Assembly (NCBI GenBank): GCA_045863235.1
Contig: BTUM01000005.1
Span: 58,912-122,911, forward strand
DNA length: 64,000 nt
Source of the DNA: Candidatus Xenobia bacterium
GTDB lineage: Bacteria > Vulcanimicrobiota > Xenobia > Xenobiales > QWHO01
Direction: 5' to 3'
The notes under the pieces are model-generated. The model did no database searches. It saw nothing but the letters and a program-made list of their open reading frames with translations, and was not told the DNA's origin. Positions 3,948 through 48,411 of this stretch are shown here, piece by piece. The stretch's first letter is position 1, and every line of letters begins with the position of its first letter. Made by a program: the position numbers and the translations under genes.

Positions 3948-4886
3948 TCAGGAGGCCTTATCGAGCAGTTCCATGTCCTCCGGGCTCAGCTTGAGCTCGA
4001 CGGCTTTGAGCAGTTCGCTGAGTTGGTCCAGGTTGGACGCGCTGGCGATTGGCGCCGTCACTCCCGGTCGGTCCATCAGCCAGGCCAGCGAAATCTGAGC
4101 CAGAGTCGCCCCGGTGCGGGCCGAGACATCGTCTAAGGCTTTCAGGACTCGCTGGCCGCGCTCTCCCAGGTAGCCCTTGAGCATTCGACCCCTCACGCTC
4201 TTGCCCAGGTCGGCCTCGGTGCGGTACTTGCCGGTCAGAAAGCCGCTGGCCAGAGAGTAGTAGCCGAAAACCCCGAGACCTTCTCGTTGGCACAGGGGTA
4301 GCAGATCTGCTTCGATACTCCGCTCCATGAGGCTGTACTGGGGTTGGAGAGCCTGGTAACGAGGCAGGGAGTTCTTTCGGCTCACCTCCAGTGCCTGCTG
4401 CAGGCGCTCGGCAGTGAAGTTGGAGGCCCCGATGTAGCGTACTTTACCCTGCTGTATCAAATCAGCGTAGGCCTGCAGGGTCTCTTCCACGGGTGTCTCG
4501 GGATCGTCGTGATGGGAGAGGTAGAGGTCGATATAGTCGGTCTTGAGCCGGCTCAGAGATGCTTCAACGGCCTGCTGGATGTATGCGGCCGACAGCCCCT
4601 TGCCACCCGGCATCGGTCCCCCCACCTTGGTGACCAGCACCACCTGGTCTCGGTTCCTGCGGGCGGCCAACCAGTCCCCCAGCACCCTCTCGGAGTCACC
4701 ACCTGTCGAGCCTGGCTGCCAGCGGGCGTAGACATCGGCCGAATCGATGAAATTGAAGCCCGCCCCCAGAAAGGCGTCGAGCAAACGAAAGGAGGTCTCC
4801 GCGTCGACCGTCCAGCCGAGCACGTTGCCGCCGAAGCAGAAGGGGGAGACTTCAAGGTCGGAGTGGCCGAGAGGACGCTTTTTCAC
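3948..4886 (-). CDS. aldo/keto reductase
   Basis: 312 aa. FNFIDSADVY, KVRYIGASNF and LAWLM motifs are characteristic of AKR family oxidoreductases. Confidence 0.9.
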   Translation of the reverse strand: MKKRPLGHSDLEVSPFCFGGNVLGWTVDAETSFRLLDAFLGAGFNFIDSADVYARWQPGSTGGDSERVLGDWLAARRNRDQVVLVTKVGGPMPGGKGLSAAYIQQAVEASLSRLKTDYIDLYLSHHDDPETPVEETLQAYADLIQQGKVRYIGASNFTAERLQQALEVSRKNSLPRYQALQPQYSLMERSIEADLLPLCQREGLGVFGYYSLASGFLTGKYRTEADLGKSVRGRMLKGYLGERGQRVLKALDDVSARTGATLAQISLAWLMDRPGVTAPIASASNLDQLSELLKAVELKLSPEDMELLDKAS

Positions 4887-15652: not shown

Positions 15653-16926
15653 GACTCTGGCTGCTCATCGCCTTGCTGGTCCTACCCTTGCTGGCCGCTC
15701 CTCAGCTGCGGCCCGAGCAGACCATGGTGCTGGTCGTGGGGCCAACCTCCTCGCCCATCGACGAGAACGAGCAGGCCGTGGTCACGCGCCTCAACGACGT
15801 TCGCAAGCAGGCGGGGCTGACTCAGCTCCTACTGGCCACCATGCACTTTGATCAGCCCACCCAGGCCAGGATCTGCCGCGAGAAGCTCGGCATCACCGAG
15901 TCCGACCTCATCTGCCTGGCGGTGGTCCAACTCGACCTCAAGACCCGTCGCCCGGTCAAGACCCTCTACAAGGTTTCAAAGGTCACCCCGGCCTCCCTGG
16001 AGCAAGTGGAGAAAACGGTGCGTCAATGGGCCGCTCAGAGCGGCGTCAAGGTGCCCGCCGAGCTGGGCGTAGCCCCCCGGTTGACCGTGGTCCGTAATCC
16101 CGCCGCCCTGCAGGGAGTGGATATGAACGGCGATGGCAAGACGGACATCTTCACCGTCAAGGAGGGTCGCTGGCTGGTCAGCTACAGCGCCACCGAGCCC
16201 TACGCCCTGTTGAGCAATCAGCCACCCATCAAGCTGGAGAGGATGGGTTTTGGAGACTTTGACGGGGACGGGAGGACCGATGTTTTCGTTGTCCCCGAGG
16301 ACAGCTACTGGCGGGTCTCTCTGGGCGGAATCGGCCCCATGGCTCAGCTCAATGAGCTGAAGGAGGGCCCTCGCTCGCTCCGCTTCGCCGATCTCGACGG
16401 GGACGGCCGCACGGACGTCTTCAACGCCAACGGAAGCCAGTGGCGCTACTCGTCCTCAGGGGCTCAACCCTGGAAGGTGCTGCAGAACTCCAATTTGAGG
16501 GCCGAGGAGCTCGCTCTGGCCGACTTCAACGGCGACGGCAAGGCCGACGTCTTCGCCGTCGTCAACGGGGTCTGGAAGGTCTCGCTGGGGGGCACCGAGC
16601 CCCTCGCGACCTGGAACCCGAACCAGGGAAACAAGTTCGAGCGCCTCCGCTTCGGCGACTTCAACGGGGACGGCAAGACCGACGTCTTCACCGAGCTTCG
16701 CCACGAGTGGCTGCTCTCCGACAACGGCAAGACGCCGCTGCGCAAGATCAACCAGGCTCGCGGCATCGGTGTGGCCGACATGGGCGCGGGCGACTTCGAC
16801 GGGGACAAGAAGGCCGATATCCTGGTGGTGAAGGACAACCGCTGGTCGCTCTCGTCGGGGGGAACCGGCCCCCTGAAGGCGGTCAACTCGGATGCCGGGG
16901 TATCGATCAGGGGTCTGCGATTTTAA
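15649..16926 (+). CDS. secreted FG-GAP/VCBS-like repeat protein
   Basis: Signal peptide. At least 7 repeats of the D(F/L)(N/D)GDG(K/R)TD(V/I)F calcium-binding type. The ATGA overlap with the PEGA gene indicates an operon. Confidence 0.8.
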   Translation: MRLWLLIALLVLPLLAAPQLRPEQTMVLVVGPTSSPIDENEQAVVTRLNDVRKQAGLTQLLLATMHFDQPTQARICREKLGITESDLICLAVVQLDLKTRRPVKTLYKVSKVTPASLEQVEKTVRQWAAQSGVKVPAELGVAPRLTVVRNPAALQGVDMNGDGKTDIFTVKEGRWLVSYSATEPYALLSNQPPIKLERMGFGDFDGDGRTDVFVVPEDSYWRVSLGGIGPMAQLNELKEGPRSLRFADLDGDGRTDVFNANGSQWRYSSSGAQPWKVLQNSNLRAEELALADFNGDGKADVFAVVNGVWKVSLGGTEPLATWNPNQGNKFERLRFGDFNGDGKTDVFTELRHEWLLSDNGKTPLRKINQARGIGVADMGAGDFDGDKKADILVVKDNRWSLSSGGTGPLKAVNSDAGVSIRGLRF

Positions 16927-17093
16927 GCCGGGCCCTGGTCGGGTTTCGCCAGAACTCCCGGAAGTGACTGGGCGGCGGGTTTGCTACCCTCATCAACGGC
17001 TGCTCTCCTGAGAGTTGCTGGCTGCGGCTGGTCAGATGCTCACTGGTCAGGCGGGGTCGACAGAGGTTGGCCGATCCGGAGGGGCTCTCCCGT

Positions 17094-17396
17094 TCAACCA
17101 GACCGACGGCGCCCGAGCCTCACGTCGTCACGGAACACCCGGTAAGGCTGACCGTTCCGAATCCTGACCTGCCACAGGATGCTCCCGCTTCGCTCGCGTC
17201 GGGCCTTCATCGTGCCCCCGTGCAGGTGCCCCTGGTGGTGCACGTCGCACACCCCCGCCAGGTTGGCGTCCTCGTCGCCCCCGCCGTGCGAGCGAAACTC
17301 CAGGTGGTGCTGGTGCAGGAAGGCGCGCCGGGTGCAGCCCGGCACCTGGCAGCGATAGTCGCAGGCCTCCATGATGCGCCGCGTGCGAGAGCGCAT
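17094..17396 (-). CDS. HNH endonuclease domain protein (start uncertain)
   Basis: The CxxC...HHLEFRSHGG...N...CDVHH motif is typical of an HNH nuclease. The first ATG is at 17396. The reading frame stays open up to the stop of the cyclase gene at 17653, so a non-ATG start further upstream is possible. Confidence 0.55.
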   Translation of the reverse strand: MRSRTRRIMEACDYRCQVPGCTRRAFLHQHHLEFRSHGGGDEDANLAGVCDVHHQGHLHGGTMKARRERSGSILWQVRIRNGQPYRVFRDDVRLGRRRSG

Positions 17397-17652
17397 CTGC
17401 CGGTCGGCCTTCTTCCAGGTCGCCAGAAAGCCCGCCAGGAAGAGCCGCAGCGCCGCTGAGCAGTCTTCGGCCCCGTGGTCCCGGGCCGCTGCCTCGGCTG
17501 CCTCGAGCACGGGCAGCCCCGGAACGTAGTTCCCACCAGCAGCCGGCGCTGTCCGCGCAAACAACGAACGAGAGTATCGCTCGGAATGAGCAGGTCGCGC
17601 GTTCGGCGGACCGGCAGGCGCCTGAGGCTCATCCCGGGGCGGGGCGATGCCA

Positions 17653-20600
17653 TCAACCCGGGCGGCCGTCCCCTGCGATTGTAAGCTCCAGCCGAGCGAC
17701 GCGGCCGAGGTGGCGCTCGGCCAGGGCCGCCTCCAGGGGCATCTGCTGGGCCTCGGCCAGGGCCAGACTGCGTTCCAGGGCGGGTCGATCGTCTTTCCCC
17801 AGTCGGCTCTGCCACAGACCGTGGCACAACCAGGCCCCGGGGGCACAGAGCGGGAAGAAGCGGGCCCGGTTGACCAGGTAGCGGACCCCACGCGCCCCCA
17901 GCGCCAACTCTCCGCGCAGCAGAGCCAGATAGCTGGCCCAGAAGACCCCCAGACGGCACCAGTGGGGTGAGGGGAGGCGGTCAACCCCGCGCAGCAGGGG
18001 CAGGGCTACGGCGGGATGGCCCTCGGCCAGGGCCGAGGCGCCTCGCCAGTTGGCCACCCCGATGGCGTCGCGCACCTCCACCAGGGAGCGGGCCTCGGCC
18101 AGGCATGCCCGGGCCTCGTCGCGGCGCCCCGAGAGGCTCAGCACCAGCGAGCGCAGGTTGCGAGCGTGTACCTCTTGCTGGGGGTCACAGCGAGCGCGAC
18201 CTTCGACCAGCACCTCGTCGGCCGCGGCCAGAGCCGCTTCCAGCTTTCCCTGGCTGTAGAGAACGTCGGCCAGGATGACCTGGCACTCGGCCGCCTGGCG
18301 GGCGTCGCGGGTCTCGAGCGAGAGCTGGCGGGCTTCCTTGAGATTGAGCTCGGCTTCAGGCCAGTCGGCCCGGCTCATGGCTACGGTCGACAGGCAGTAG
18401 AGTACCCGCGCCATCAGCACCGGGTCCCCCAGCTCTCGGGCCAGCTGCAGGCTGTGCTTCTGGTAGAGCGACGCCAGGCGGGGCAGGGGCAGGGTGGTTG
18501 AGCAGCCGGCGGCCATCATGGCATAGGCCCGGGCCAGCACCGGCGAAGGGCCTCCCAGGGCCTCGGCCCGGACCACCAGCTCGCCTCCGGCGTGAAACGA
18601 CAGGTCCAGCTCCCCGGCCAGGGCCTCCACCATCGTGAGACGATCCCAGGCCAGCACTGCCTCCATCTGCGGTGAAGGCGCGACGGCCGGCCGGGCGCAC
18701 AGGCGGGCAGTGGGGGCGGCCAGCGCGGCCACCGACGAGCGGTCGAGCCAGTCGGCCAGTTTGCGACCGGCCTGGCCCGGCAGCGCGAAGGGGCGTTCGA
18801 GCAGCCAGAACTGCCACCAGTGGGGGCTCGTCCACAGCGAAGAGCGAGAGCGGGGCACCCGGCAGCCCAGGCCCTCCAGGGAACTCACCAGGTGGCGGCG
18901 GCATTCGACCAGGTCGCCCGCTCCATAGCAGGCCTCGGCCAGCAATCGGGACAGGCGAGCGCGCTCCTGCGGCGGTGCCGCCTCCAGGGCCCGGCGCAGC
19001 AGGCCGGCCGCCTCGGGATAAGCGCCCTGGTGGAGAGCCCGCTCGCCCACTTCGGCCAGGTAGGGATAGGCCTGCTCGGGCTCTCCCGCCTCCCACCAGT
19101 GGTGAGCGAGTTGCACCGGGTCGGTCTCGCGCTGGGCGACCGCCCGGTGCAGCTCGCGGCGCTGGGAGTAGAGCAGCGTGTTGTAAGCCGCTTCCCGGGT
19201 CAAGCCGTGCTTGAAGGCATGGCGGCCGGCCTCGAAGCGGGGGGTCAGCTCGAGCCGGCCGAGCTCGCTGAAGATCGCCTCCAGATTGTCGGTCGCTGAA
19301 TTCTCGGCGGGGTGCACCTCGGCCACCATGGCCAGGGCGAAGACCCGCCCCACCACGCTGGCCACTTTGAGGGCCAGCTGGTGGGCCGGCTGAAGCCGGT
19401 CGATGCGACTGGTGATGGCTCCTCCCACGGTGTCCAGAATCTGCAGCAGCTCGGGCTCACCTTTCAGGCGCAGGGTCTCTCCCTCTTGCTCGAGCAGCCC
19501 GGCGCTGCCCAGCGCCAGCAGCAGCTCCTCGGTGAAGAACGGGTTGCCCTCGGCCTTCTCGCGCAACAGGCGCAGCAGTCGCGCGTCCAATTGCTCGGCT
19601 CCGGTTCGAGCTCGGGCCAGGGCCAGGATGGCCTGCTCGTCCAGCGGGTCGAGTCCCAGGCGCTCGAGACCGTCCAGCCCGTGCCCCGGGCGGGCCACCA
19701 GCAGGACCCGCCCGGGAGCGTGCACCAGCACTCTGCGCGAGACCGAGTCCAGCCAGTGGGCGTCCTCCACGATCACCAGATAGCTCTGGTTGGCCCAGTG
19801 CTCGGTCAGGTCGAGCAGCATTTCGCGGAGCGCCTCGCCGCGGGCCGCTCCCGTCAGATTCCGGGTGGCGGCATTGTCGGTGAAGCTCTGGCCGGCCAGC
19901 TCGGCAGCCAGAGGGGCCAGGGGATGGCGCTCGAGCCATTCCCGGTCGGGCCGGTCGAGCTGGCGGAAGACCGAGCCGGGAATGCCCTGGCCCACCGGAT
20001 CGGCCTGCAGCAGCACCACCGGCAGGGGGCACTCCTCGAGCAGGTCCTGGACCAGTCGCGACTTCCCCAGCCCCGGCTCGCCCTCGAGCAAAAGCTTGCC
20101 AGGCGTGCCGAGCAGCCGGTCGAGCTGCTTCCGCTCGCCTTCCCGTCCCACCAGGGGCGCGCTGGTAGAAGTGCTCTCGCTGAGACCGAGAGGCCGGTGG
20201 GGAGCGAGGGTCTGGCTCTTGCCCTTGAGCGCGATGGGCTCGAGCTGCTCGAACCGCGCCCGGTCGCGGCTCAGGCGGGCGGTCTCGGGATCGCACAGAA
20301 CATCGCTCTTCTGCATCAAGCGGGCGGCCAGGTTGACCCGATCGCCGATCAAGCAGTATTCGCGCCGCCGCGGGCTGCCGCGAATGCCGCAGAAGACCCG
20401 CCCGGTTGCGATTCCGATAGAGCCCAGCGGGGCCAGCTCCAGGCCGGCCCGGATGGCCCGCAGCGCGTCGTCCGGGTGCGAGCGAGGCACGCCGAAAGCG
20501 GCCAGAAGGATGGTGCCCTTGTCGTCCATCAGGCACTGGATGAGACTGGCCTCCTCGCTCTCGAGCACCTGCTGGGTTTGAAGCACGGCCTGGTGCAGCC

Positions 20601-21336
20601 TCTCGAGCACGTCGCAGGCCTGGTAGTCGAGCTTGCGCAAGCACAAGAAGAGCACCGAGACGGGTCGCAACTCGGCCAGCCAGGCGTCGCTGGTCTGGAG
20701 CCGGTCCAGCACGGCCGCGCTGAGGTAGGCCTGCAGCTCCTCGCCAGGGGCTGCGGACTCGGCCTGCCAGGGGACCGGGGGGGATTCGAGCAGGCGCGGG
20801 CCCTCCCGCCTGGCGTCAGGCAAGAAGGCCCAGACGGGCGCGGCCACGGTCACCTGGCCCGGTTGGGCCAGCCGCTCGGCGCTGGAGGCCTGCTCCAGGG
20901 GCTCGCCGGCCAGCACGAACTCCCAGCGGCCCCGGTGGCCTCCCACCCCGGCCAGCACCGCTTCGCCGGCCCCGAGCCCCAGTCGTAGAGTCAGGCCGTC
21001 CTGGCTCAGGGCAGCCGCTTGAAGGGCACAGGCGGCGGCCCGGGGCACGGCTTCCTGGAGCGGTCCGGGAAAGGCCACGATGGGAGCGTCCCCGGCGATC
21101 TTGACCACCTGTCCGCCGTGCCGGTGAAAGATCTCGAAGAGCTGCTCGAAGTAGCGGTCGAGCAGGGCCGAAAGCCGCTCGGCCCCCTCGGGGCCCTGCC
21201 GGGCGAGTTCCTCGGCCAGCCGGGTGAAGCCACACAGGTCGGCCAGCAGGATGGCGGCCGGAAAGCGGTCCAGCCAGGGCTGGCCGGCGGGACGGCCGGC
21301 CAGGAGAGGAGGAACGAAGCTGGCCAGCCGGTCCAT
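17653..21336 (-). CDS. dual adenylate/guanylate cyclase (2x CHD) - STAND/AAA ATPase - TPR-like multidomain signalling protein
   Basis: 1227 aa. Two class III cyclase homology domains (~25-190 and ~225-375; ADLCGFT, VKIAGD and FGVPRSH, GIATGRV motifs). P-loop EGEPGLGKS. Long helical TPR-like C-terminus. Architecture resembles the mycobacterial Rv0386/Rv1358 family, but without a LuxR HTH. Confidence 0.85.
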   Translation of the reverse strand: MDRLASFVPPLLAGRPAGQPWLDRFPAAILLADLCGFTRLAEELARQGPEGAERLSALLDRYFEQLFEIFHRHGGQVVKIAGDAPIVAFPGPLQEAVPRAAACALQAAALSQDGLTLRLGLGAGEAVLAGVGGHRGRWEFVLAGEPLEQASSAERLAQPGQVTVAAPVWAFLPDARREGPRLLESPPVPWQAESAAPGEELQAYLSAAVLDRLQTSDAWLAELRPVSVLFLCLRKLDYQACDVLERLHQAVLQTQQVLESEEASLIQCLMDDKGTILLAAFGVPRSHPDDALRAIRAGLELAPLGSIGIATGRVFCGIRGSPRRREYCLIGDRVNLAARLMQKSDVLCDPETARLSRDRARFEQLEPIALKGKSQTLAPHRPLGLSESTSTSAPLVGREGERKQLDRLLGTPGKLLLEGEPGLGKSRLVQDLLEECPLPVVLLQADPVGQGIPGSVFRQLDRPDREWLERHPLAPLAAELAGQSFTDNAATRNLTGAARGEALREMLLDLTEHWANQSYLVIVEDAHWLDSVSRRVLVHAPGRVLLVARPGHGLDGLERLGLDPLDEQAILALARARTGAEQLDARLLRLLREKAEGNPFFTEELLLALGSAGLLEQEGETLRLKGEPELLQILDTVGGAITSRIDRLQPAHQLALKVASVVGRVFALAMVAEVHPAENSATDNLEAIFSELGRLELTPRFEAGRHAFKHGLTREAAYNTLLYSQRRELHRAVAQRETDPVQLAHHWWEAGEPEQAYPYLAEVGERALHQGAYPEAAGLLRRALEAAPPQERARLSRLLAEACYGAGDLVECRRHLVSSLEGLGCRVPRSRSSLWTSPHWWQFWLLERPFALPGQAGRKLADWLDRSSVAALAAPTARLCARPAVAPSPQMEAVLAWDRLTMVEALAGELDLSFHAGGELVVRAEALGGPSPVLARAYAMMAAGCSTTLPLPRLASLYQKHSLQLARELGDPVLMARVLYCLSTVAMSRADWPEAELNLKEARQLSLETRDARQAAECQVILADVLYSQGKLEAALAAADEVLVEGRARCDPQQEVHARNLRSLVLSLSGRRDEARACLAEARSLVEVRDAIGVANWRGASALAEGHPAVALPLLRGVDRLPSPHWCRLGVFWASYLALLRGELALGARGVRYLVNRARFFPLCAPGAWLCHGLWQSRLGKDDRPALERSLALAEAQQMPLEAALAERHLGRVARLELTIAGDGRPG

Positions 21337-21548
21337 CCTACCCGTTTCTCGCTCCCCGTGGGATCGTCCCTCTATGAACTTTCTGTAAACGGTGCTCCCG
21401 GTTTCTCAGAGCTGATTCGAGTCCTGTCGCCGTTCCTGGCGGTCATGTGAATATCGTGTAAAGAGTTTTTTGTTGCCGATCGGTAGAGCCGGCAGACGGC
21501 CAGGGTCAATGATGGGATCGCCAAGTCTTGATTGCAGGAGGTAGAGCC
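21337..21548. promoter_or_regulatory. divergent intergenic region (lower GC, ~50%) between the cyclase gene and a small + strand gene, containing a canonical SD
   Basis: The AT-richer stretch gtgaatatcgtgtaaagagttttttgttgcc is followed by AGGAGG (21533-21538) 8 nt upstream of GTG 21549. Confidence 0.4.
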
Positions 21549-21960
21549 CGTGACCGATCTCACCACCGAGCTTGCCCGCATCGCCCAGGCGCGCCTGGGG
21601 GCGCCAGGCGACCCGAGCATCAACACCTCCAACCTGGGAGCGGCCGCTCAGCGAGCGCTGGGTGGCCTTTCTCCGGTCTCCTCCAACGGCCCGGTCCACC
21701 AGTCCTCGAGCCTTCCGAGTTCGAGGCCTGGCCTCGAACGACCGGCCGACAACTGGTCGGCCCCCAACCTGCGCTGGCTGGGGAGCGAATCCGAGCGAGA
21801 GATGCCTAAAGAGCCGGGCTGCTCGGGCGGAGGATGCTGCGAGGGACCTGAAAAGCCCAAAAGGGGCAAACGGGGTCGTCGGTCCCGGCGGGCTCGGGCC
21901 GGCCGCTCGCGCCGGGCGCGCGCCAGGCGCCGGACCAATCGGGCCCGTCGGGCGGCCTGA
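21549..21960 (+). CDS. small protein with Cys cluster and Arg-rich basic tail
   Basis: GTG start with strong SD (AGGAGG-N8-GTG). 137 aa. CSGGGCC, then KRGKRGRRSRRARAGRSRRARARRR. Composition overlaps the GC-bias artefact class, so confidence is modest. Confidence 0.4.
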
Positions 21961-22018
21961 GCCGTAACCGCAACAAACCTGATACATCACCGGCCGGGGG
22001 CCGTGCTAACCTTCGGGT

Positions 22019-22513
22019 ATGCGCATTCAGCCCGTCAACGACCTCTACCAGGAGGTCAAGAGCTCGGCCCCCGGCCTGATCGACATGCTCAAGGAGGATC
22101 GCCAGCAGTGGGAGCCGGTCTTCCGGGACATCGTGGAGCAGACCCTGGAGGGGGGGCAGCAGGCGCTGGACGAGATCAGGTCGCGCCCCGAGCTGCCCGA
22201 GCAGGCCCGCGAGACGGCCCTGGCCTTCCTGGAAGGCGGGCTGACGGCCGGCTGCTTCGGAGCCATGACTGCCTGGGCCCGGCGCTCGGCTGAGCTGCGC
22301 GACGGCATCGCCGGGCAGGCCGAGGAACTGCGCCGCGAGATGCACCAGCAGGGCAAGCCGGCCCTGCAGCGGACGCTGGCCGCCGAGCAGGAGCGAGGAC
22401 GCGAGCTCTATGCTCGCAGCGATCAGGCCGAGGACTATCGCTCACTCTTGCAGGAGGCTTTCGTGGCAGGCTACCGCATCGGCGGGGCGGAGGCTTTGCT
22501 GGTCCTCGGCTGA
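22019..22513 (+). CDS. hypothetical protein
   Basis: 164 aa. Balanced charged/hydrophobic composition, unlike the antisense artefacts. No recognisable motif. Confidence 0.5.
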   Translation: MRIQPVNDLYQEVKSSAPGLIDMLKEDRQQWEPVFRDIVEQTLEGGQQALDEIRSRPELPEQARETALAFLEGGLTAGCFGAMTAWARRSAELRDGIAGQAEELRREMHQQGKPALQRTLAAEQERGRELYARSDQAEDYRSLLQEAFVAGYRIGGAEALLVLG

Positions 22514-22545
22514 CCTCGTGGCTGATCCCAGGCTCGCAACGAAAC

Positions 22546-24414
22546 TCAGAGCGAGCTTCCCTTCGGTCCCACCTCGAGCACCCAGAAGCGCCCGAAGGTC
22601 GGGTTGCGCAGCTCCTCCACCACCGGCCCCTGAGCGAACCCCAGCTCGACCAGCTCGGCGGTGAGCCTTCGCTTGAGCGGCTCGTCGGTGAACCACGGAA
22701 CGTGGTCCTTGAGCAGCTCGATGGCCGGCCGGCGGAAGATGGCGTTCACCTCGAAGTCCAGGTCGATGGCCAGCTTCTCCAGGTTGGAGTTGACATGCGG
22801 CCAGTCCACGCCCGGCATGCTGAGGCGGACCCAGCCCTGCTGCTGCAGGCGGTCGAGGAAGGCGGCGTAGTCCTCGACCGTCCCGGCCAGCGAGGCGATC
22901 TCCTCGAAACAGCGCAGCGACTTGAGCGGGAACGGGGCGGCCGGGCCGCTGACCACCCCTGAGACCCGGCTGGTGCCCTCCACCCCGGCCAGCAGGCGCA
23001 GGAAGACCGGGTGCTGGCCGGTGGTCTCGGCTACGAACTGCTCCAGTCGCACCACCCGGGCCGGTCGACCGGCTTCCTGGGCGATGCGGGCGAACATGTC
23101 GAAGAGCAGATCGCGGGTCGCCGAGGCGCCGTAGCGGCGGATCACCTGCACCGCCTCCTCGTAGCTGCGGGCCGCTCCGCTCAGGTCGGGAATGCCGTAG
23201 TCCACGATGCGCAGGTAGTGGGCCCGCTCGAGCGACTCGCGGAAGAAGCGGGCCGGCCCGTTCTGGTAGGAGAAGAGCACGTCCGACAGGCCCTGGAGGG
23301 CCGGGTCATCGCACTCGAAGGGCTCAAAGCGCACCTCCCAGTCGACGTGCTCCAGCGTCTCCACCCCGAAGCGCCCCAGCGGCTCGAGCTCGCCGGCCGT
23401 GAGCCAGGCGTGCAGTTGCTCGGCGCTCACCTCGGGGGTCAGGAGGGCCTCGGGGAAGGTTCCCCGCACGGTGGCGCGATAGAGCTTGCCCTGCTCGTCG
23501 GCATAGAGCACCGCGGCGCAGGGCAGGTCGGTGAAGAGCTCGTTGTGGCGCTGCAGGGCGTAGGGGGCCAGACGGTTGAGCTCGTCCAGCCCCAGCACCT
23601 CGATGTCGCGCGAGGTGGGGCTGTGGGCCAGGGCGTCTTTGAGCATGGCCGGCGAGATGTCGCCCATGCAGTAGTGCACCGGGCGGCCCAGGCGGCGCGC
23701 GCAATCGGCCCGGAAGTCGGCGGCGTACTGGCCGCCTCCTACGCCCACCTCCAGCACTCGCAGGGGATCGGGCAGAGAGCCGACCTGAGAGCAAAAGCGC
23801 ATGGCATCGGCCTGAGCCTGCAGGGGATCGTGGCTGACGGCGGTGATGAAGTCTTCGTAGATGGTGGAGCCGCGCAGGCGGTAGTAGACCAGGTTGGTCT
23901 GGTCGAGCACGTTGCCGGGCTCGTCGAGTGGCATGAAGGCCTCGCCCAGCCGGGCCCTCGGACCGGGGTCGCAGAAGTTGCCGGCGGTGGCGTGGGCCAG
24001 CTCGAAGGTCTTGACCACCACGGCGATGTGGCGTAGCCACTCCTCGCTGCTCAGGGGCACCTCGCGCAGGATCTCGGTGCAGCGCCCGACCAGCGCTTCG
24101 AGCTGGCGGCGCACCTCGCGGTAGCCAGGCAATCCCAGGGGGCTCTCGGGATCGAGCTCGGACACGGCCAGGGCCAGTGGATCGATGCCGGCCGACTCGG
24201 TGTTGCGAATGCGATTCATCAGCCTTCGCAACGAGGCGTTCAGGCCGGCGTAGTGGGCTCGCAGCTCCACCAGGCCCTCCTCCAGGGAGGGAGCGGCGCC
24301 GATGACATCCGGCCAGCGGGTGGGGAGGTTGTTCAGAAAGCGGGGGTCTTGCAGGGTGATCACGACGGCGGCTTCGGGACCGGCCGCGGGCCCACCTCCG
24401 CCCTCCAGTGTCAA
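22546..24414 (-). CDS. large hypothetical protein with a class I SAM-dependent methyltransferase-like core
   Basis: 622 aa. VLEVGVGGGQYA fits MTase motif I (hhDhGxGxG). HYCMGDIS could be motif II. The remainder is unassigned. Confidence 0.6.
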   Translation of the reverse strand: MTLEGGGGPAAGPEAAVVITLQDPRFLNNLPTRWPDVIGAAPSLEEGLVELRAHYAGLNASLRRLMNRIRNTESAGIDPLALAVSELDPESPLGLPGYREVRRQLEALVGRCTEILREVPLSSEEWLRHIAVVVKTFELAHATAGNFCDPGPRARLGEAFMPLDEPGNVLDQTNLVYYRLRGSTIYEDFITAVSHDPLQAQADAMRFCSQVGSLPDPLRVLEVGVGGGQYAADFRADCARRLGRPVHYCMGDISPAMLKDALAHSPTSRDIEVLGLDELNRLAPYALQRHNELFTDLPCAAVLYADEQGKLYRATVRGTFPEALLTPEVSAEQLHAWLTAGELEPLGRFGVETLEHVDWEVRFEPFECDDPALQGLSDVLFSYQNGPARFFRESLERAHYLRIVDYGIPDLSGAARSYEEAVQVIRRYGASATRDLLFDMFARIAQEAGRPARVVRLEQFVAETTGQHPVFLRLLAGVEGTSRVSGVVSGPAAPFPLKSLRCFEEIASLAGTVEDYAAFLDRLQQQGWVRLSMPGVDWPHVNSNLEKLAIDLDFEVNAIFRRPAIELLKDHVPWFTDEPLKRRLTAELVELGFAQGPVVEELRNPTFGRFWVLEVGPKGSSL

Positions 24415-24650
24415 CTCCGGTCGGGAAAAGTAGACAGCCTCCGCGTCTGCTCATGAGCTGACACCGAGCGTGTCAACTCCGCTCGGGAAAGGTAGACGCC
24501 TCAGCGTCTGCTCATGAGCTGACACCGAGCGTGTCAACTCCGCTCGGGAAAAGTAGACAGCCTCCGCGTCTGCTCATGAGCTGACACCGAGCGTGTCAAC
24601 TCGGCTCGAGGAAGAGTCGCCAGCCATGAGTTGACACTCAGCGGGGCAAG
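24408..24650. repeat. tandem direct repeat, ~3.7 copies of a 61-62-bp unit, each with a gtgtcaac...g(c/t)tgacac palindromic pair
   Basis: Units start at 24408, 24470, 24531 and 24593 and are >93% identical over the whole unit. It is therefore not a CRISPR repeat-spacer organisation. The array lies between the start of 22546..24414 and the end of 24638..25549. Confidence 0.85.
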
Positions 24651-25549
24651 GCCGGGCTCGGCCACAACAAGTCGCTCACGCTGCGCATCAGGGCCTTGGA
24701 TTGAGGGTCGTCGGAGCGCTTGCGGGAGACCTTCGCGGTCTCGTCCCAGGCCTCGCCGAGCAGACCCTGCTCGAGATAGACCCCGATCAGCAGCAAGTGG
24801 GGCGACAGATCGTCCTTGCGCGCCTTGAGGGCGGCGTTGGCATCCTTGCGAGCCAGGCCAACCTGGTCGGACTCGGAGGTCGAGAGCACCTGGAAGGCCA
24901 GCTCGCTCTCGATCCCCCCCTCGTCCACCGCCTTGATGGTGTAGTTGCCCGGGGCGAGTCTGGGGCCCCGCACCTGGGACTTGTCGGTGCGCGTGGTCCA
25001 GAGCTCTGTTCCGGTCTGATCGACAATCTTCAGCTGGGCCGGGCTCATGGCTTTGATCCGGAACGAAGGAGGGCTGAGGAAGCGCTTCTGACCCGAGAAG
25101 ACCACCCCCATCTGGCAGAGGAAGGGGGGCGGGGTGGACACTCCCCCGCGGTCGAGGTAGGCCTGCATGCTTCCCCCGAGTCGCTCGAGATTCTCGCCAC
25201 GCGGAACCAGGGCCCTGGAACGGCTCGGGGGAAGGCTCTTGAGTTGGCCGGGCGAGCCCTCCAGGAGTCGCGTTCGGTCCGAGGCGACCTCCAGGCGGCA
25301 GGGGCCGGTGGCCAGATCGGTCCGCCCGTCCGAGTAACAGGCCAGCGCCACCCTGGCTCCGGGATCGAGCTCGAGCTGTTGGCCGGCTTCCAGCACCCGC
25401 AGCAACTTGACCGGTGTGCGTCCTTCCGGACTGGATAGATAGACGTTGCCGCTCACGTCGGTGAGCACGGCCACGCGCTGGGCAGCCCCCACGACTGCCA
25501 TCGCCAGCAGAACAAGGAACACGTATCTCACGGCTGCTCGACCTCCCAA
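24638..25549 (-). CDS. secreted hypothetical protein
   Basis: 303 aa. N-terminal hydrophobic signal-like segment (VRYVFLVLLAMAVVGAA). The 5' end overlaps the stop of the upstream cyclase gene by ~22 bp. Confidence 0.5.
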   Translation of the reverse strand: MGGRAAVRYVFLVLLAMAVVGAAQRVAVLTDVSGNVYLSSPEGRTPVKLLRVLEAGQQLELDPGARVALACYSDGRTDLATGPCRLEVASDRTRLLEGSPGQLKSLPPSRSRALVPRGENLERLGGSMQAYLDRGGVSTPPPFLCQMGVVFSGQKRFLSPPSFRIKAMSPAQLKIVDQTGTELWTTRTDKSQVRGPRLAPGNYTIKAVDEGGIESELAFQVLSTSESDQVGLARKDANAALKARKDDLSPHLLLIGVYLEQGLLGEAWDETAKVSRKRSDDPQSKALMRSVSDLLWPSPALPR

Positions 25550-45320: not shown

Positions 45321-47666
45321 GTGACCACTGGCCAGCTCCTGGATTTGCCCAGGATCCCCGATCCGAAGGGCTTTGGGCCCCGAGTCGTCAGCCTCTCGCA
45401 GAGGCTGGAGAACGGGCCCAGCGGCGTCTTTGGCTTCTATGAGCCGAATGAGGCCCGGTTCGATCATCGGCTTGATCGCGCCGACGAGCACGTCGCGCGG
45501 GGCCGCTGGGATCTGGCCGAGCGCATGTACGAGCAGGTGCTGGCCGATTATCCCCACAATCGCCGGGCTCTCAACGGCGCCGCCCGGGTCTATGCAACCA
45601 AGGGCAAGCGGCGCAAGCTTTTGACCGCTTGCTACAGCTGGTTGGAAGCGCTGGAGCACCAGTCCCAGTGGAGTCTGGTCGAGGCGGTCGGGGAAGCCAT
45701 CCTGCGCTTCGACGCCACTTCCGAGAAGGCGCGCCTGCACATCGCCCTGGCCCGCCTGCAGAGCAAAGACTTCGGGGGGGCGCTGGCCAACCTGCGCGAG
45801 CTCAGCCTGCTCTTACTCGAGCGAGGAGAGACCGAGGAGTCGCTGCAACTGCTCGAGCGGGCCTGGCTGGTAGTGCCGTCGGATTTCCCCACCGGGATGG
45901 CCCTGGCCGAGGTCTACATCCTGACCGGCAATTTCGACCTGGCCGGACAGCACCTGCGCAACCTGGCCTCCGTCCTCATCGAGCGCGGCCAGGATGAGCT
46001 GGCGGCCGAGGTCTTTCAGCGCTTGATGGTGATCAGCCCCGAGCGGGCAGACGTAGCTCTCAGCCTTGGTCGGCTCTATCTGGCCATGGGACGCTATCCC
46101 GCCGCCATCGGCGAGTTCCGCTCGCTGCTGCGCCACCCGGGCGACCCGCGGCCGGCCCTGCTGCTGCTCGCGGAGGCCTGCCTGCTCAATAAGCAGTTCG
46201 AGGACGCGGTCCTGGCCGCGCGCAAGATCCTCAGCCTCGACCCCGAATGCGCCGAGGCCCGCAGCCTGCTGGGCACCGCTTACCTGGGCCTCGGCCTGAC
46301 CGAGCAGGCCAGCGAGCTGATGCCGGCACCGAGCCGCGCTCCCGAGCCCGAGATGGCCCAGGACGTCCCGCCCGTCTTTGTGCCAGCTCCACCCGTGCCC
46401 GAGAGCTTCCAGATGCCTGCTCTCCCGGTCTTGCCGCTTTGCGAAGAGCTGCCGCCCCTGCCGGTGCTGCCCTGCCTGGCGCCCGAGAGCGAGGGCGTCG
46501 TCCTGGCCGAGGCCCTGGAGTTCCTGGCCGTCGGACTGGATTCTGCCGACCAGGCGGTGGAGCCGCCCGCCCCCTCGCCCGCGCAGGCTACTCATGAGCT
46601 GGCCCCCTGGCCCGAGCCGAGTGGAGAGGCCTCATCCGAGCAGACTCAGGAGCTGGCCCCCTCGCCGGAGCCGAGTGGAGAGGCCTCACCCGAGGTGACT
46701 CAGGAGCTGGCTCCTGCACTCGAGCAGCACCCGACCGCTTTCTGGCACGAGCCGGTCCTGCCGACTCTGCCCGCGCCCCGGCCCACCGCGGCCCCGAATC
46801 AGGACGAAGCCCCGCCCAATCCGTTGCTCCTGCGCCACGGCATCCAGGCGGCCGCCCGCCTGCTCGACGATCCCTGGCTCAATCCCGAAGAGCGGGTGGA
46901 AGCCCTCGACTGCCTCTGCCAGGCCGTGCGTTACTATGCTCGCAGCCTGCCTCGCGACCGGCGCCAGGCTACCTGGTCGGCCCAGGAGCAGCAGATCGAG
47001 CAGGCCGTGGCCGTGTTGCGTCCGGTTCCCCTGGACGGCAACCTGGTGCGGCTCACCCTCTGGCGCGGTATCCAGGCCGCCGGTGCGCTCCTCTCCGAGC
47101 CCCGCCTGGCCTGGGAGCGCAAGCTGGAGGCCCAGACCGTGCTGGCCCTGGCGGCCGAGGCCTACGCCCGGGCCATCCCCTGCGAGCGGGCCGAGGACGC
47201 TTACCAGGCTCTCGACCGCCTGTTGCACAACCACGACTGGTCGCGCAACCTGGGTCCCTCCCAGCGCCTGACCGTATGGCGCGGCATCCAGGCCTGCGGC
47301 ACCCTGATGCTCGAGCGCGAGGACTCCCCCGAAGACCGCGTGCGCCTGCTGGAGACCCTGTGCCAGGCCGGCCGGCTCTACGCCCTGGAAGTGCCTCTGC
47401 CCGACCCCAACGCCGCCTTCGAGGCCCTGGCCCGCGTGCTTTATGCCACCGACCCGCGCCTCACCGATGGGCCGCTGACTCAGCATGCGCTCTGGAAGGG
47501 CATCCAGGCCGCTGGCGGGCTGCTCGACGACCCCAACTATCCGGCCGAGCGCCGCCAGGAAGTGCTGGGTGCCCTGTGCGAGACAGCTCGCGCCTTCGCG
47601 CGCCTGGCCCCGCCGCCCGAGCCCGATGCCCTGGATCGGCTCAAGAGCGACTACTTCCTCTCCTGA
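45321..47666 (+). CDS. TPR-repeat protein with Pro-rich linker and four ~70-aa C-terminal repeats
   Basis: 781 aa. N-terminal TPR-like helical repeats. Linker with tandem 23-aa units (QELAPSPEPSGEAS). Four copies of the L.(V/L)WRGIQAAG.LL..P...R...L..LC..AR.YA module. Confidence 0.8.
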   Translation: MTTGQLLDLPRIPDPKGFGPRVVSLSQRLENGPSGVFGFYEPNEARFDHRLDRADEHVARGRWDLAERMYEQVLADYPHNRRALNGAARVYATKGKRRKLLTACYSWLEALEHQSQWSLVEAVGEAILRFDATSEKARLHIALARLQSKDFGGALANLRELSLLLLERGETEESLQLLERAWLVVPSDFPTGMALAEVYILTGNFDLAGQHLRNLASVLIERGQDELAAEVFQRLMVISPERADVALSLGRLYLAMGRYPAAIGEFRSLLRHPGDPRPALLLLAEACLLNKQFEDAVLAARKILSLDPECAEARSLLGTAYLGLGLTEQASELMPAPSRAPEPEMAQDVPPVFVPAPPVPESFQMPALPVLPLCEELPPLPVLPCLAPESEGVVLAEALEFLAVGLDSADQAVEPPAPSPAQATHELAPWPEPSGEASSEQTQELAPSPEPSGEASPEVTQELAPALEQHPTAFWHEPVLPTLPAPRPTAAPNQDEAPPNPLLLRHGIQAAARLLDDPWLNPEERVEALDCLCQAVRYYARSLPRDRRQATWSAQEQQIEQAVAVLRPVPLDGNLVRLTLWRGIQAAGALLSEPRLAWERKLEAQTVLALAAEAYARAIPCERAEDAYQALDRLLHNHDWSRNLGPSQRLTVWRGIQACGTLMLEREDSPEDRVRLLETLCQAGRLYALEVPLPDPNAAFEALARVLYATDPRLTDGPLTQHALWKGIQAAGGLLDDPNYPAERRQEVLGALCETARAFARLAPPPEPDALDRLKSDYFLS
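47618..47660. repeat. imperfect 43-bp direct repeat, copy A (3' end of the TPR gene)
   Basis: cccgagcccgatgccctggatcggctcaagagcgactacttcc is ~88% identical to 48443..48485. Confidence 0.7.
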
Positions 47667-47994
47667 GCAGCGACTTGCTCCTCCAGTCGAGCCCCTGACC
47701 CACTGAGCTCGTCAAAGATCCGGTAACTTCGCCGCAACAGTCCGGCAAAGGATCGGCAATGCTTCGTTCATCCGGGGACGGTAGGCTTGAGGCAGAAACC
47801 CGGCGAAGATCCGTGACGACAGCCGGGCTAGAAGTCCGGCCGCAAGCCCCCTGTGGTGTCGGAGGGAACCTCCGCCACCACAAGATGTTGTAGGCGCCCG
47901 GACTTCTAGCACTACATGTTTGGGCGTCGCGCAGCCGGAAAACCGTGTCAAGGGGGTTTCCGGCTGCGCTCCTGAATTCATCGAGGAGCAGCTG

Positions 47995-48411
47995 ATGATG
48001 AGCGACTACGAGAACTTGCGTCGGGAGATGCAGGCCAACTTCGAGTTGACCTGGGGAAAGTTGGCCGACCACGACCGGCGTTTTGACGAGCAGGCAGCCA
48101 TTTTGCGAAAGCACGGCGAGATGCTCGATTCCCACTCGGCCAAGCTCGATTCCCACTCGGCCAAGCTCGACGCCCACTCGGCCAAGCTCGACGAGCATTC
48201 GGCCAGACACGACGAGCACTCGGCCCGTTTCGACAGGCTCGACCGGCTGATCCCGATGATGCAGACGACGATGGATGCGGTCCTGGAGCTTCGCCAGGAG
48301 GTCGGCGATTTGCGCCGCGAGATGCGGAGCGAGTTCACGGCCGTCCGATCGGACCTGTCCGACCTGACCCGCCGCGTCGAGGTGCTGGAGAAACGATCGC
48401 CGGCGGCCTGA
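47995..48411 (+). CDS. small coiled-coil protein with 5 tandem heptad repeats (LDSHSAK-like)
   Basis: ATG 47995 is preceded by GAGGAG 6 nt upstream. An in-frame ATG at 47920 would place a hairpin inside the ORF. 21-bp DNA tandem repeats x5 at 48124-48228. Lower GC than its surroundings. Confidence 0.55.
   Translation: MMSDYENLRREMQANFELTWGKLADHDRRFDEQAAILRKHGEMLDSHSAKLDSHSAKLDAHSAKLDEHSARHDEHSARFDRLDRLIPMMQTTMDAVLELRQEVGDLRREMRSEFTAVRSDLSDLTRRVEVLEKRSPAA

Follow-up and report, generated by a model that had tools for sequence, protein, structure and literature searches.

A tandemly repeated palindromic element in the intercistronic spacer of a presumed Xenobia operon

What is the array of direct repeats that separates two genes of the same strand in a member of Candidatus Eremiobacterota, class Xenobia, and how might it bear on the expression of those genes? 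The array occupies positions 24408-24637 (230 nt) of the window, by which is meant the whole 64,000-nucleotide stretch of DNA that was analysed, and comprises three full units and one diverged unit of 50 nt. It is by far the strongest tandem repeat that TRF reports in the window (24408-24625, period 62, 3.5 copies, 92% matches, score 371), and its 62-mer consensus gives two matches at three or fewer mismatches against none in 100 shuffles, which together confirm the tandem repeat described in an earlier note on this DNA. The units abut one another directly and unique spacers are absent, so that the same note's view of the array as something other than CRISPR also holds.

Read on the minus strand, on which the two flanking genes lie, the array opens with the diverged unit D (24588-24637, 50 nt, GTGTCAACTCATGGCTGGCGACTCTTCCTCGAGCCGAGTTGACACGCTCG), which begins at the base directly after the TGA stop codon of the upstream gene and whose two ends form a perfect 10-bp inverted repeat; its interior differs from that of the full units, yet is self-complementary. 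It is followed by U1 (24526-24587, 62 nt, GTGTCAGCTCATGAGCAGACGCGGAGGCTGTCTACTTTTCCCGAGCGGAGTTGACACGCTCG), which scores 75.5 bits with nhmmer and 83.8 bits with the covariance model R1, by U2 (24465-24525, 61 nt), in which the deletion of one base and an altered apical loop produce a perfect 6-bp inner stem (AGACGC/GCGUCU), and by U3 (24408-24464, 57 nt), the last unit, which ends at GGAGTTGACAC; both U2 and U3 are likewise matched by nhmmer and by R1. While the repeats had been described as filling the whole gap between the two genes, a non-repeat leader of 44 nt (24364-24407, minus strand) in fact separates them from the GTG start codon of the downstream gene.

The inverted pair and the TTGACA words that were originally seen in each unit are present, but the real symmetry is larger than had been noted. 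The pair itself (GTGTCAACTC / GAGCTGACAC) is complementary at nine of ten positions in the full units and perfect in unit D (GTGTCAACTC / GAGTTGACAC), and GTGTCAACTC has 10 occurrences with no more than one mismatch in the window, where 2.6 are expected; eight of those ten fall inside the array. A direct reading of the sequence indicates that each unit consists of an imperfect palindrome of approximately 52 nt, centred on GCTCA/TGAGC, and a linker of approximately 10 nt. The centre of symmetry is a perfect 10-bp palindrome, GCTCATGAGC (24449-24458), that is present in each full unit; the 52-nt module is in turn composed of two sub-palindromes, and each unit holds four half-sites (GYGTCWRC) of alternating orientation. 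A junction palindrome (GAGYTGACAC-N5-GTGTCARCTC) is found at 24578-24602, with further copies at 24516-24540 and 24455-24479, and a perfect 11-nt inverted repeat (24407-24417 and 24628-24638) bounds the array as a whole.

The upstream gene (24638-25531, minus strand), the TGA stop codon of which (24638-24640) abuts the array, encodes a 297-aa protein that has a hydrophobic segment at its N terminus and matches no Pfam family, and is preceded by the first gene of the presumed operon, a CHASE2 sensor adenylate/guanylate cyclase (25528-27402, minus strand). The downstream gene (22546-24363, minus strand) encodes a SAM-methyltransferase-like protein of 605 aa that displays a VLEVGVGGG motif and whose distant homologues match PF02636; the protein of the window itself has no entry among public assemblies. 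This gene had been placed at 22546-24414, from a TTG codon at 24414; however, its homologues are all 599-605 aa in length, and gene callers start them at the equivalent of the GTG at 24363, which indicates that the array stops short of the start codon. No transposase, RAYT, Y1 transposase, integrase or tyrosine recombinase was seen among the proteins of the 64-kb window, no partition or replication genes lie near the array, no DNA-binding regulator was recognised beside it, and searches of viral contigs and of plasmid and phage collections returned no match to it.

The origin of the array is apparent from a relative with 91% protein identity, in which the same gene pair lies 42 bp apart without any array; its empty site reads TGA-7 nt-GAGGTGGGC..., the 44-nt leader is homologous to that 42-bp spacer, and more distant orthologues likewise lack the array. 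This comparison of sequences shows the array to be an insertion into the approximately 42-bp intercistronic spacer of the cyclase / 297-aa / methyltransferase-like operon, and not a native promoter. The variation in copy number that the earlier note had proposed to look for is also seen: full units at this site (locus A) number 3, 3, 4, 5 and 5 among close relatives, and 3, 4, 5 and 5 in four genomes of one type (CPR1), the flanks of which are 99.1-100% identical, with the qualification that these counts derive from metagenome assemblies, in which tandem repeats may collapse.

Related units are found at two further loci. Locus B, in another species, harbours an array of 5.3 related 62-bp units (85% identical) that is oriented oppositely to its flanking genes as compared with locus A (the gene calls being supported by GC3), and the corresponding sites in relatives are empty, measuring 52 bp and 134 bp. 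Locus C corresponds to a solitary 52-nt copy in the same MAG (CAUJEN01) as a locus A array, making two loci in one MAG; it lies 60 nt past a stop codon, in the gap between two convergent genes, and eight assemblies contain it in identical form. The insertion sites are unrelated. At all three loci the element follows stop codons and lies between co-directional or convergent genes. As far as has been found, the element is confined to one group of uncultured bacteria. A covariance-model search with filters off detected no further copy in the window or in 86 kb of related loci, and searches with nhmmer and covariance models for diverged copies returned locus C alone elsewhere and nothing new in the window. 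A scan of a genome collection, which used an exact-terminus pattern and so misses diverged copies such as locus C, found approximately 80 other palindromes with the same 10-mer termini, against approximately 67 expected by chance (a hand estimate); some of these belong to multi-copy families of Catenulispora, Ilumatobacteraceae and Mycobacterium MAGs, the interiors of which are unlike the unit, and all were treated as unrelated. The family thus looks to be low-copy. The earlier note had reasoned that a unit dispersed over many loci with no preference for promoters would speak against its regulatory proposals; loci B and C indeed display no such preference, but the loci are few.

The sequence of the array has evolved slowly. 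Between the window and the MAG CPR1 (GCA_021404945.1), 8 of its 230 positions differ (3.5%), against 17.3% of fourfold-degenerate sites (P = 8e-11), so that the array is approximately five times more conserved than those sites, whereas the adjacent leader differs at 8 of 44 positions (18%), about the neutral rate. Unit D is identical at 50 of 50 positions between the window and the CPR1-type genomes (0/50 differ, P = 7.6e-5), and all of the differences between the window and CPR1 within the array fall in the inner loop or the linker. The half-sites are invariant across loci A, B and C while spacers and loops vary, and the conserved sequence reaches past the palindrome arms to the central GCTCATGAGC.

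The earlier suggestion of a structured RNA leader or intercistronic region is plausible in respect of stability. On the transcribed strand the whole array is predicted to fold to -131.9 kcal/mol (z -5.0), single modules to -24.6 and -28.6 kcal/mol (z -3.0 and -4.6) and unit D to -22.9 kcal/mol (z -3.3). As read directly from the sequence, a G.U pair closes the outer stem on the transcribed strand, where the other strand would present A-C. The comparative side of that suggestion did not follow: in a covariation test of two candidate structures, with 10 unit variants from approximately three independent lineages, no pair changed on both sides, so that comparative support for an RNA structure is absent and the test is uninformative. 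None of 4227 Rfam models, searched at a permissive E-value, reached its gathering threshold (the best matches, to miRNA models, scored 18-19 bits where 69-100 bits are required), and a scan for intrinsic terminators found no terminator-like site. A role as a CsrA/RsmA sponge, by way of GGA in hairpin loops, was rejected as GGA is lost in several unit variants. Because locus B is reversed, a strand-specific RNA role cannot be general.

On balance, we lean towards reading the array as a lineage-specific, low-copy extragenic palindromic element, comparable to REP, BIME and BOX elements, that has been amplified in tandem and probably acts as mRNA hairpins or as a protein site. The element, an imperfect palindrome of approximately 52 nt centred on GCTCATGAGC, was inserted directly downstream of the 297-aa gene's stop codon and would then have been amplified head to tail, together with a 10-nt linker, through replication slippage or unequal recombination, either of which would explain the differing unit numbers in near-identical strains. 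The units would be transcribed together with the operon and would form hairpins of high stability directly behind the stop codon of the upstream gene. Co-transcribed REP and BIME hairpins can stabilise upstream mRNA or attenuate read-through; the hairpins here may, in the manner of REP/BIME and BOX elements, block 3'-exonucleases and slow down read-through or ribosome release. Expression of the upstream genes might in this way be uncoupled from that of the methyltransferase-like gene, with unit number setting the strength of the effect. The module is probably also recognised in a sequence-specific manner by a protein, candidates being a nuclease, a DNA-binding factor and a transposase-like enzyme that mobilises the element; such recognition is made probable by stems that are invariant rather than covarying and by an array that changes about five times more slowly than neutral sequence.

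Several known systems share features with the element. REPs mostly follow ORFs and lie between genes that are unidirectional or convergent; they often occur in tandem clusters, are thought to form RNA hairpins, and are defined by a GTAG or CGTC tetranucleotide, unpaired, at one end of the palindrome (PMC3733652). The array family resembles the REP, BIME and REPIN elements of Proteobacteria in consisting of extragenic imperfect palindromes, single or in tandem, with presence/absence differences between relatives; however, it lacks a conserved unpaired GTAG or CGTC tag. GTAGAC occurs in the units of locus A only, where it is paired within the inner stem (the corresponding sequences are GTTGAC at locus B and GTTGCC at locus C), and the conserved CGTC, in (G/A)CGTC(T/C)GCTCATGAGC, lies inside the palindrome and is not an end tag before a stem of 8-9 bp with a loop of 4-5 nt. 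In addition, the module is 52 nt long, as compared with 20-40 nt for REPs; the units run directly head to tail and not as HH/TT dimers; the family is apparently low-copy, as opposed to tens to thousands of copies per genome; no RAYT gene accompanies it in the window, whereas REPIN-RAYT systems have a cognate RAYT (a Y1 HUH transposase) with the repeats on its flanks; and Eremiobacterota are not among the phyla listed for REPs.

The BOX elements of Streptococcus pneumoniae (boxA-boxB(n)-boxC) are intergenic, with more than 100 copies per genome, a variable number of modules and a predicted stable structure, and can alter the expression of neighbouring genes. The array is similarly built from one module in variable number (unit D plus n copies of the 62-bp unit), but displays no sequence similarity to BOX and lacks a closing module equivalent to boxC. 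The MIRU-VNTRs of Mycobacterium tuberculosis, which are tandem units of 40-100 bp in operons, with one class of 62 bp and strain-variable numbers, offer a parallel in that the array is also composed of tandem units in an intercistronic gap, the number of which varies between strains in metagenome assemblies; MIRUs, however, are not strong palindromes. On the gene strand, the 62-nt units can be read as a chain of 21-codon ORFs in which stop and start codons overlap as ATGA, but a MIRU-like coding role, with small ORFs coupled translationally to the flanking stop and start codons, was rejected: several unit variants, among them U2 and the first CPR1-type unit, contain an in-frame TGA, there is no Shine-Dalgarno sequence, the chain does not share the frame of the downstream GTG, and it is reversed at locus B. 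Plasmid centromeres of the sopC type and iteron arrays share with the array the tandem arrangement of units that each contain an inverted-repeat protein-binding site (putative here), but the array is chromosomal and intra-operonic, away from any partition or replication gene. An integron attC site was also rejected: TGTCAAC and GTTGACA match R'' (RYYYAAC) and R' (GTTRRRY) at five of seven positions each, full units read GCTGACA on the latter side, no cassettes lie between the units, and a tyrosine recombinase is missing from the window.

A further reading, which we consider unlikely, is that an undescribed, sequence-specific Xenobia protein recognises the 52-nt double palindrome as its module, the protein being either a non-RAYT mobilising enzyme or a DNA- or RNA-binding regulator, and that the array is a selected, copy-number-tunable control of the expression ratio within the cyclic-nucleotide-sensor / methyltransferase operon. 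This reading is suggested by the invariant stems, the approximately five-fold slower evolution than at neutral sites and the insertion at unrelated loci in different species; if true, it would add a new pairing of element and protein in a phylum that has hardly been studied.

That the array is instead a functionless minisatellite, that is, a selfish or accidental palindromic insertion, enlarged by slippage, in a spacer that is non-essential and tolerates it, appears improbable. Such an origin would accord with the presence/absence polymorphism between species, the empty sites at both array loci, the varying unit number and the low-copy family at unrelated insertion sites, but not with the approximately five-fold excess of conservation of the array and of its single-copy D unit over fourfold-degenerate sites and the adjacent leader, nor with copies at loci A, B and C that are at least 85% identical although the orthologous proteins of the species concerned share only 70-80% identity. 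Very recent transfer, or templated self-correction of the palindromes, could mimic such constraint.

An operator array, in which each unit presents two palindromic sites (GAGTTGACAC-N5-GTGTCAGCTC and a weaker GCAGACGC-N5-CTGTCTAC) to a dimeric DNA-binding protein, is in our view rather doubtful. Sites recurring every 62 bp, or approximately six helical turns, would place dimers cooperatively on one face of the helix, for example as a roadblock or as a repressor of the methyltransferase-like gene. Arms of 10 bp around a 5-bp spacer have the geometry typical of HTH dimers, and this fit, the invariance of the half-sites beside variable spacers and loops, the lack of covariation and the strong purifying constraint would all agree with an operator, as would the reversal at locus B, since a palindromic site functions either way round. 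The solitary copy at locus C, however, has the 3' ends of convergent genes on both sides and is not at a promoter; no similar palindrome lies upstream of other genes in the window, a regulon search for GTTGACAC-Nx-GTGTCAAC palindromes having found none there outside the array; no DNA-binding regulator was recognised next to the array; close relatives maintain the same operon without it; and conservation extends past the arms to the centre.

The least tenable reading, that of a promoter region with iterated sigma-70 promoters in which each GTTGACAC serves as a -35 box and unit number sets the promoter dosage of the downstream gene, can draw on a perfect TTGACA in every unit on the transcribed strand and on the gene strand of the locus B units (GTTGACAGC), but is very hard to reconcile with the absence of a -10-like hexamer at 16-18 nt (the hexamer 17 nt after TTGACA is TGAGCA in internal units and GCCCGC after the last), with a consensus scan of 23900-25100 that found no sigma-70-like promoter (although the promoter consensus of the host phylum may differ), with the reversed array at locus B and the solitary copy between convergent genes at locus C, and with the array-free relative, in which the same two genes stand 42 bp apart, implying that the array is dispensable for transcription of the methyltransferase-like gene.

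Proteobacteria, Firmicutes and mycobacteria are well known to harbour families of small palindromic repeats. For Candidatus Eremiobacterota, the first cultivated representative of which was reported only in 2022, no description of such a family was found in the literature. The array changes no general concept, but the locus provides a natural series (an empty site, a solitary copy, and 3, 4 and 5 units), under evident sequence constraint, for studies of element origin, amplification and operon polarity. Differences in unit number could also help to tell strains of these bacteria apart in metagenomes; the array itself breaks short-read assemblies at locus A.

Of all tandem repeats in the window, the one at 24408-24637 is the strongest (TRF period 62, 3.5 copies, 92% matches, score 371), and its 62-mer consensus was found twice at three or fewer mismatches, as against no occurrence in 100 shuffles, which bears out the tandem array described in the earlier note. 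Read on the minus strand, on which both flanking genes also lie, the array follows directly upon the TGA stop codon of the upstream gene (24640-24638) and comprises a diverged 50-nt unit, termed D (24637-24588), and full units of 62, 61 and 57 nt (24587-24526, 24525-24465 and 24464-24408), followed by a non-repeat leader of 44 nt (24407-24364) and the GTG start of the downstream gene. That start, placed at 24414 in the same note, is most likely 24363, because all homologues are 599-605 aa long and the gene callers agree on the shorter form. The full unit (GTGTCAGCTCATGAGCAGACGCGGAGGCTGTCTACTTTTCCCGAGCGGAGTTGACACGCTCG) is an imperfect palindrome of approximately 52 nt plus a linker of approximately 10 nt, centred on the perfect 10-mer GCTCA-TGAGC. 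The inverted pair previously noticed in each unit is genuine (complementary at 9 of 10 positions in full units and 10 of 10 in D), but belongs to this larger symmetry, in which both arms are themselves palindromic: H1 (GAGTTGACAC-GCTCG-GTGTCAGCTC), which crosses the unit junctions, and H2 (AGACGC-GGAG-GC(U)GUCU). Each 62 bp thus holds four half-sites, GYGTCWRC, in alternating orientation, and a perfect 11-nt inverted repeat encloses the entire array.

The surrounding minus-strand genes encode, in order, a CHASE2 adenylate/guanylate cyclase (25528-27402), an exported-looking protein of 297 aa without a Pfam hit (24638-25531) and, beyond the array, a SAM-methyltransferase-like protein of 605 aa (22546-24363) that carries a VLEVGVGGG motif and whose distant homologues contain PF02636. 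Homologues of this last protein derive from 'bacterium CPR1' and Candidatus Eremiobacterota; the G+C content of the window is 66.7%. Neither a transposase nor an integrase is encoded in the window.

When 185,579 species genomes and the JGI metagenomes were scanned with an exact pattern, the orthologous site (locus A) was recovered in four further assemblies. In addition to D, three full units are present in the window and in CPR1 (L092), four in the KLAP168 MAG (L048), and five in both JAANMW (L089) and JAANMV (L091 and L090); the flanks of L048, L089 and JAANMV agree at 1499-1500 of 1500 positions and that of L092 is 99.1% identical. Judged from these metagenome assemblies, the array shows variable-number behaviour, as the earlier note had suggested, between CPR1-type flanks that are 99.1-100% identical. 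Several public contigs break off at the repeats (L093; L116). A relative, L106, encodes a methyltransferase-like protein that is 91% identical, yet its two orthologous genes lie only 42 bp apart without an array; because that spacer (TGA-GCGCGCA-GAGGTGGGC...GTG) aligns with the 44-nt leader, the array must have been inserted immediately past the stop codon, into a spacer too short to serve as an independent promoter region. Orthologues at 75-77% identity have different upstream neighbours and no array. The bases that flank the array read ...CTGA-array-CTGGAG in the window and ...TTAA-array-CTAGAG in the CPR1 type (L048), and differ at matching positions on both sides (24638-24640 and 24405-24407; G/G versus A/A), a pattern that might be left over from a short target-site duplication (CTRAG) or have arisen by coincidence.

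Related units were found at two other loci. In another Xenobia species, locus B (L024/L087) contains 5.3 units of 62 bp, 85% identical to the window unit, between genes of 494 and 265 aa; both genes (calls supported by GC3) lie on the strand opposite to the locus A unit sense, so that the orientation of the array relative to transcription is reversed. Relatives without the repeat have a spacer of 52 bp (L105) or 134 bp (CPR1 type, L101-L104) at this site, and one locus B protein homologue carries the label Candidatus Xenobia. The 4.4-kb contig L024 (CAYYHB010000276.1), binned as 'uncultured Burkholderiales', is probably mis-binned, since it is near-identical to L087 and its protein homologues come from Candidatus Xenobia (83% identity) and bacterium CPR1 (70%). 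At locus C the element occurs as one isolated, diverged copy of 52 nt (GAGTTGACAGGCTCGGTGTCTGCTCATGAGCGGACGCAGAAGCTGGCAACTC; nhmmer E 1.7e-5, CM 69 bits), located 60 nt past the stop of a 107-aa gene and between convergent genes; it lies in KLAP168 (CAUJEN01), which also holds the locus A array, and is identical in eight assemblies. On L107 (4440-4848), the 523-bp 'intergenic' stretch around this single palindrome seems, from a direct reading of the sequence, to include an unannotated minus-strand ORF of approximately 100 aa that ends near 4513; if that ORF is real, the palindrome would sit some 77 nt past its stop and would remain flanked by convergent 3' ends.

A search by covariance model, with all filters disabled, detected no further copies across the 64 kb of the window and 86 kb of related loci, and the repeat matched no viral contig, plasmid or phage. 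The family is therefore dispersed, apparently low-copy and limited to this clade; the prospect of a dispersed element raised earlier holds insofar as the unit recurs at loci B and C with no preference for promoters, but not as regards many loci. The comparisons show that a palindromic module was inserted behind a stop codon and then amplified in tandem to variable number, and that the family is dispersed, independent of orientation and under strong sequence constraint. The main interest lies in a conservation that is unexpectedly strong, and in the clean progression that leads from an empty site through a single copy to an array.

That constraint was measured between the window and CPR1, with fourfold-degenerate sites of three flanking genes as the neutral reference. 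While 153 of 885 such sites differ (17.3%), as do 8 of 44 leader nucleotides, the 230-nt array contains only seven substitutions and one indel (P = 8e-11), all within the H2 apical loop or the linker, and the single-copy D unit contains none in 50 nt (P = 7.6e-5). Across loci A, B and C the copies have identical stems, although the host proteins are only 70-80% identical. No pair showed compensatory change under the long-hairpin model (89% of cells paired) or under the two-hairpin model (94%); stems that are invariant rather than covarying point either to sequence-specific recognition of the element or to its recent spread by mobility, and do not in themselves demonstrate a functional RNA fold. 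The predicted fold of the array reaches -131.9 kcal/mol on the transcribed strand (z -5.0) and -124.6 on the opposite strand (z -5.5). At the closing position of the outer stem the former has a G.U pair and the latter an A-C mismatch, a mild preference. A single module folds at -24.6 kcal/mol, and the locus C copy forms one long hairpin (-28.6 kcal/mol, z -4.6).

The array consists of a palindromic repeat element that is specific to this lineage and has been amplified within an operon. A REP/BIME-like reading is somewhat favoured, under which it would act in the manner of REP/BIME, BOX and MIRU elements. The operon mRNA would run through the array, and its units would fold into stable hairpins, the first starting at the nucleotide next to the stop codon; these may protect the 3' end of the upstream mRNA, as in REP/BIME or BOX elements, and lower read-through and downstream expression, to a degree set by the number of units. 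The module is probably also a recognition site for a sequence-specific protein. REP elements are defined by a GTAG/CGTC tag (PMC3733652), whereas the window family has no conserved unpaired GTAG or CGTC; nor does it show the ORF coupling of MIRU, and a coding or translational-coupling role was rejected, the 21-codon ATG...TGA chain being interrupted in several unit variants and reversed at locus B. On these sequence grounds the repeat should be described as a new extragenic palindromic repeat family of the Eremiobacterota rather than as a strict-sense REP.

A minisatellite without function would account for the varying unit number and is unlikely, given the constraint on array and stems. Slightly less likely is a pure DNA operator array, to which the half-sites and invariant stems would be suited; none of the genes in the window is recognisable as a DNA-binding regulator, and no similar palindrome suggestive of a regulon occurs elsewhere in the window. 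The iterated -35 (TTGACA) promoter proposed in the earlier note is very improbable, as a scan of 23900-25100 found no promoter-like or terminator-like sites, the hexamers that follow TTGACA at the -10 spacing (TGAGCA within the array, GCCCGC behind the final unit) are not -10-like, the downstream gene is independent of the array at the empty site, and one copy lies between convergent 3' ends.

A CRISPR array, already discounted, was rejected for want of spacers, and an integron attC array because core sites do not match and neither cassettes nor integrase are present; no Rfam family matched. Multi-copy palindromes with the 10-mer termini GTGTCA[A/G]CTC...GAG[C/T]TGACAC, treated as unrelated because their interiors are unlike the window unit, occur in other phyla: in a Catenulispora MAG (L001, L007, L013, L022, L023, L046, L060, L073), in Ilumatobacteraceae and Actinomycetota MAGs (L012-L084), and in Mycobacterium and Actinomycetota MAGs (L011-L071), examples being the 41-nt TCTGTGTCAGCTCA...TGAGCTGACACAGA and AAAATGGAGTGTCAACTCCAAAA...TTTTGGAGTTGACACTCCATTTT. 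The common termini probably reflect chance, amplified by copy number.

Elsewhere in the window, synteny with relatives at 75% identity (L095-L100) is broken across 16900-34200: in those relatives the methyltransferase-like gene comes next after an FG-GAP gene, with an S51 peptidase approximately 3 kb further on, whereas in the window approximately 17 kb separate the FG-GAP and peptidase genes, with an inverted methyltransferase block and two cyclase genes (at 17653-21336 and at 25528-27402) between them. The plus-strand gene at 30765-33230 is bacterial vault-protein-like: its 821-aa product carries major vault protein domains (MVP shoulder at 4.9e-28, with weak matches to Vault repeat and SPFH). 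Two further tandem repeats, at 48123-48225 (21-bp period, 4.9 copies, score 122-124) and 46590-46711 (54-bp period, 2.3 copies, score 202), are probably coding repeats, since they apparently lie inside an ORF (47920-48411) and a TPR gene (45321-47666), respectively.
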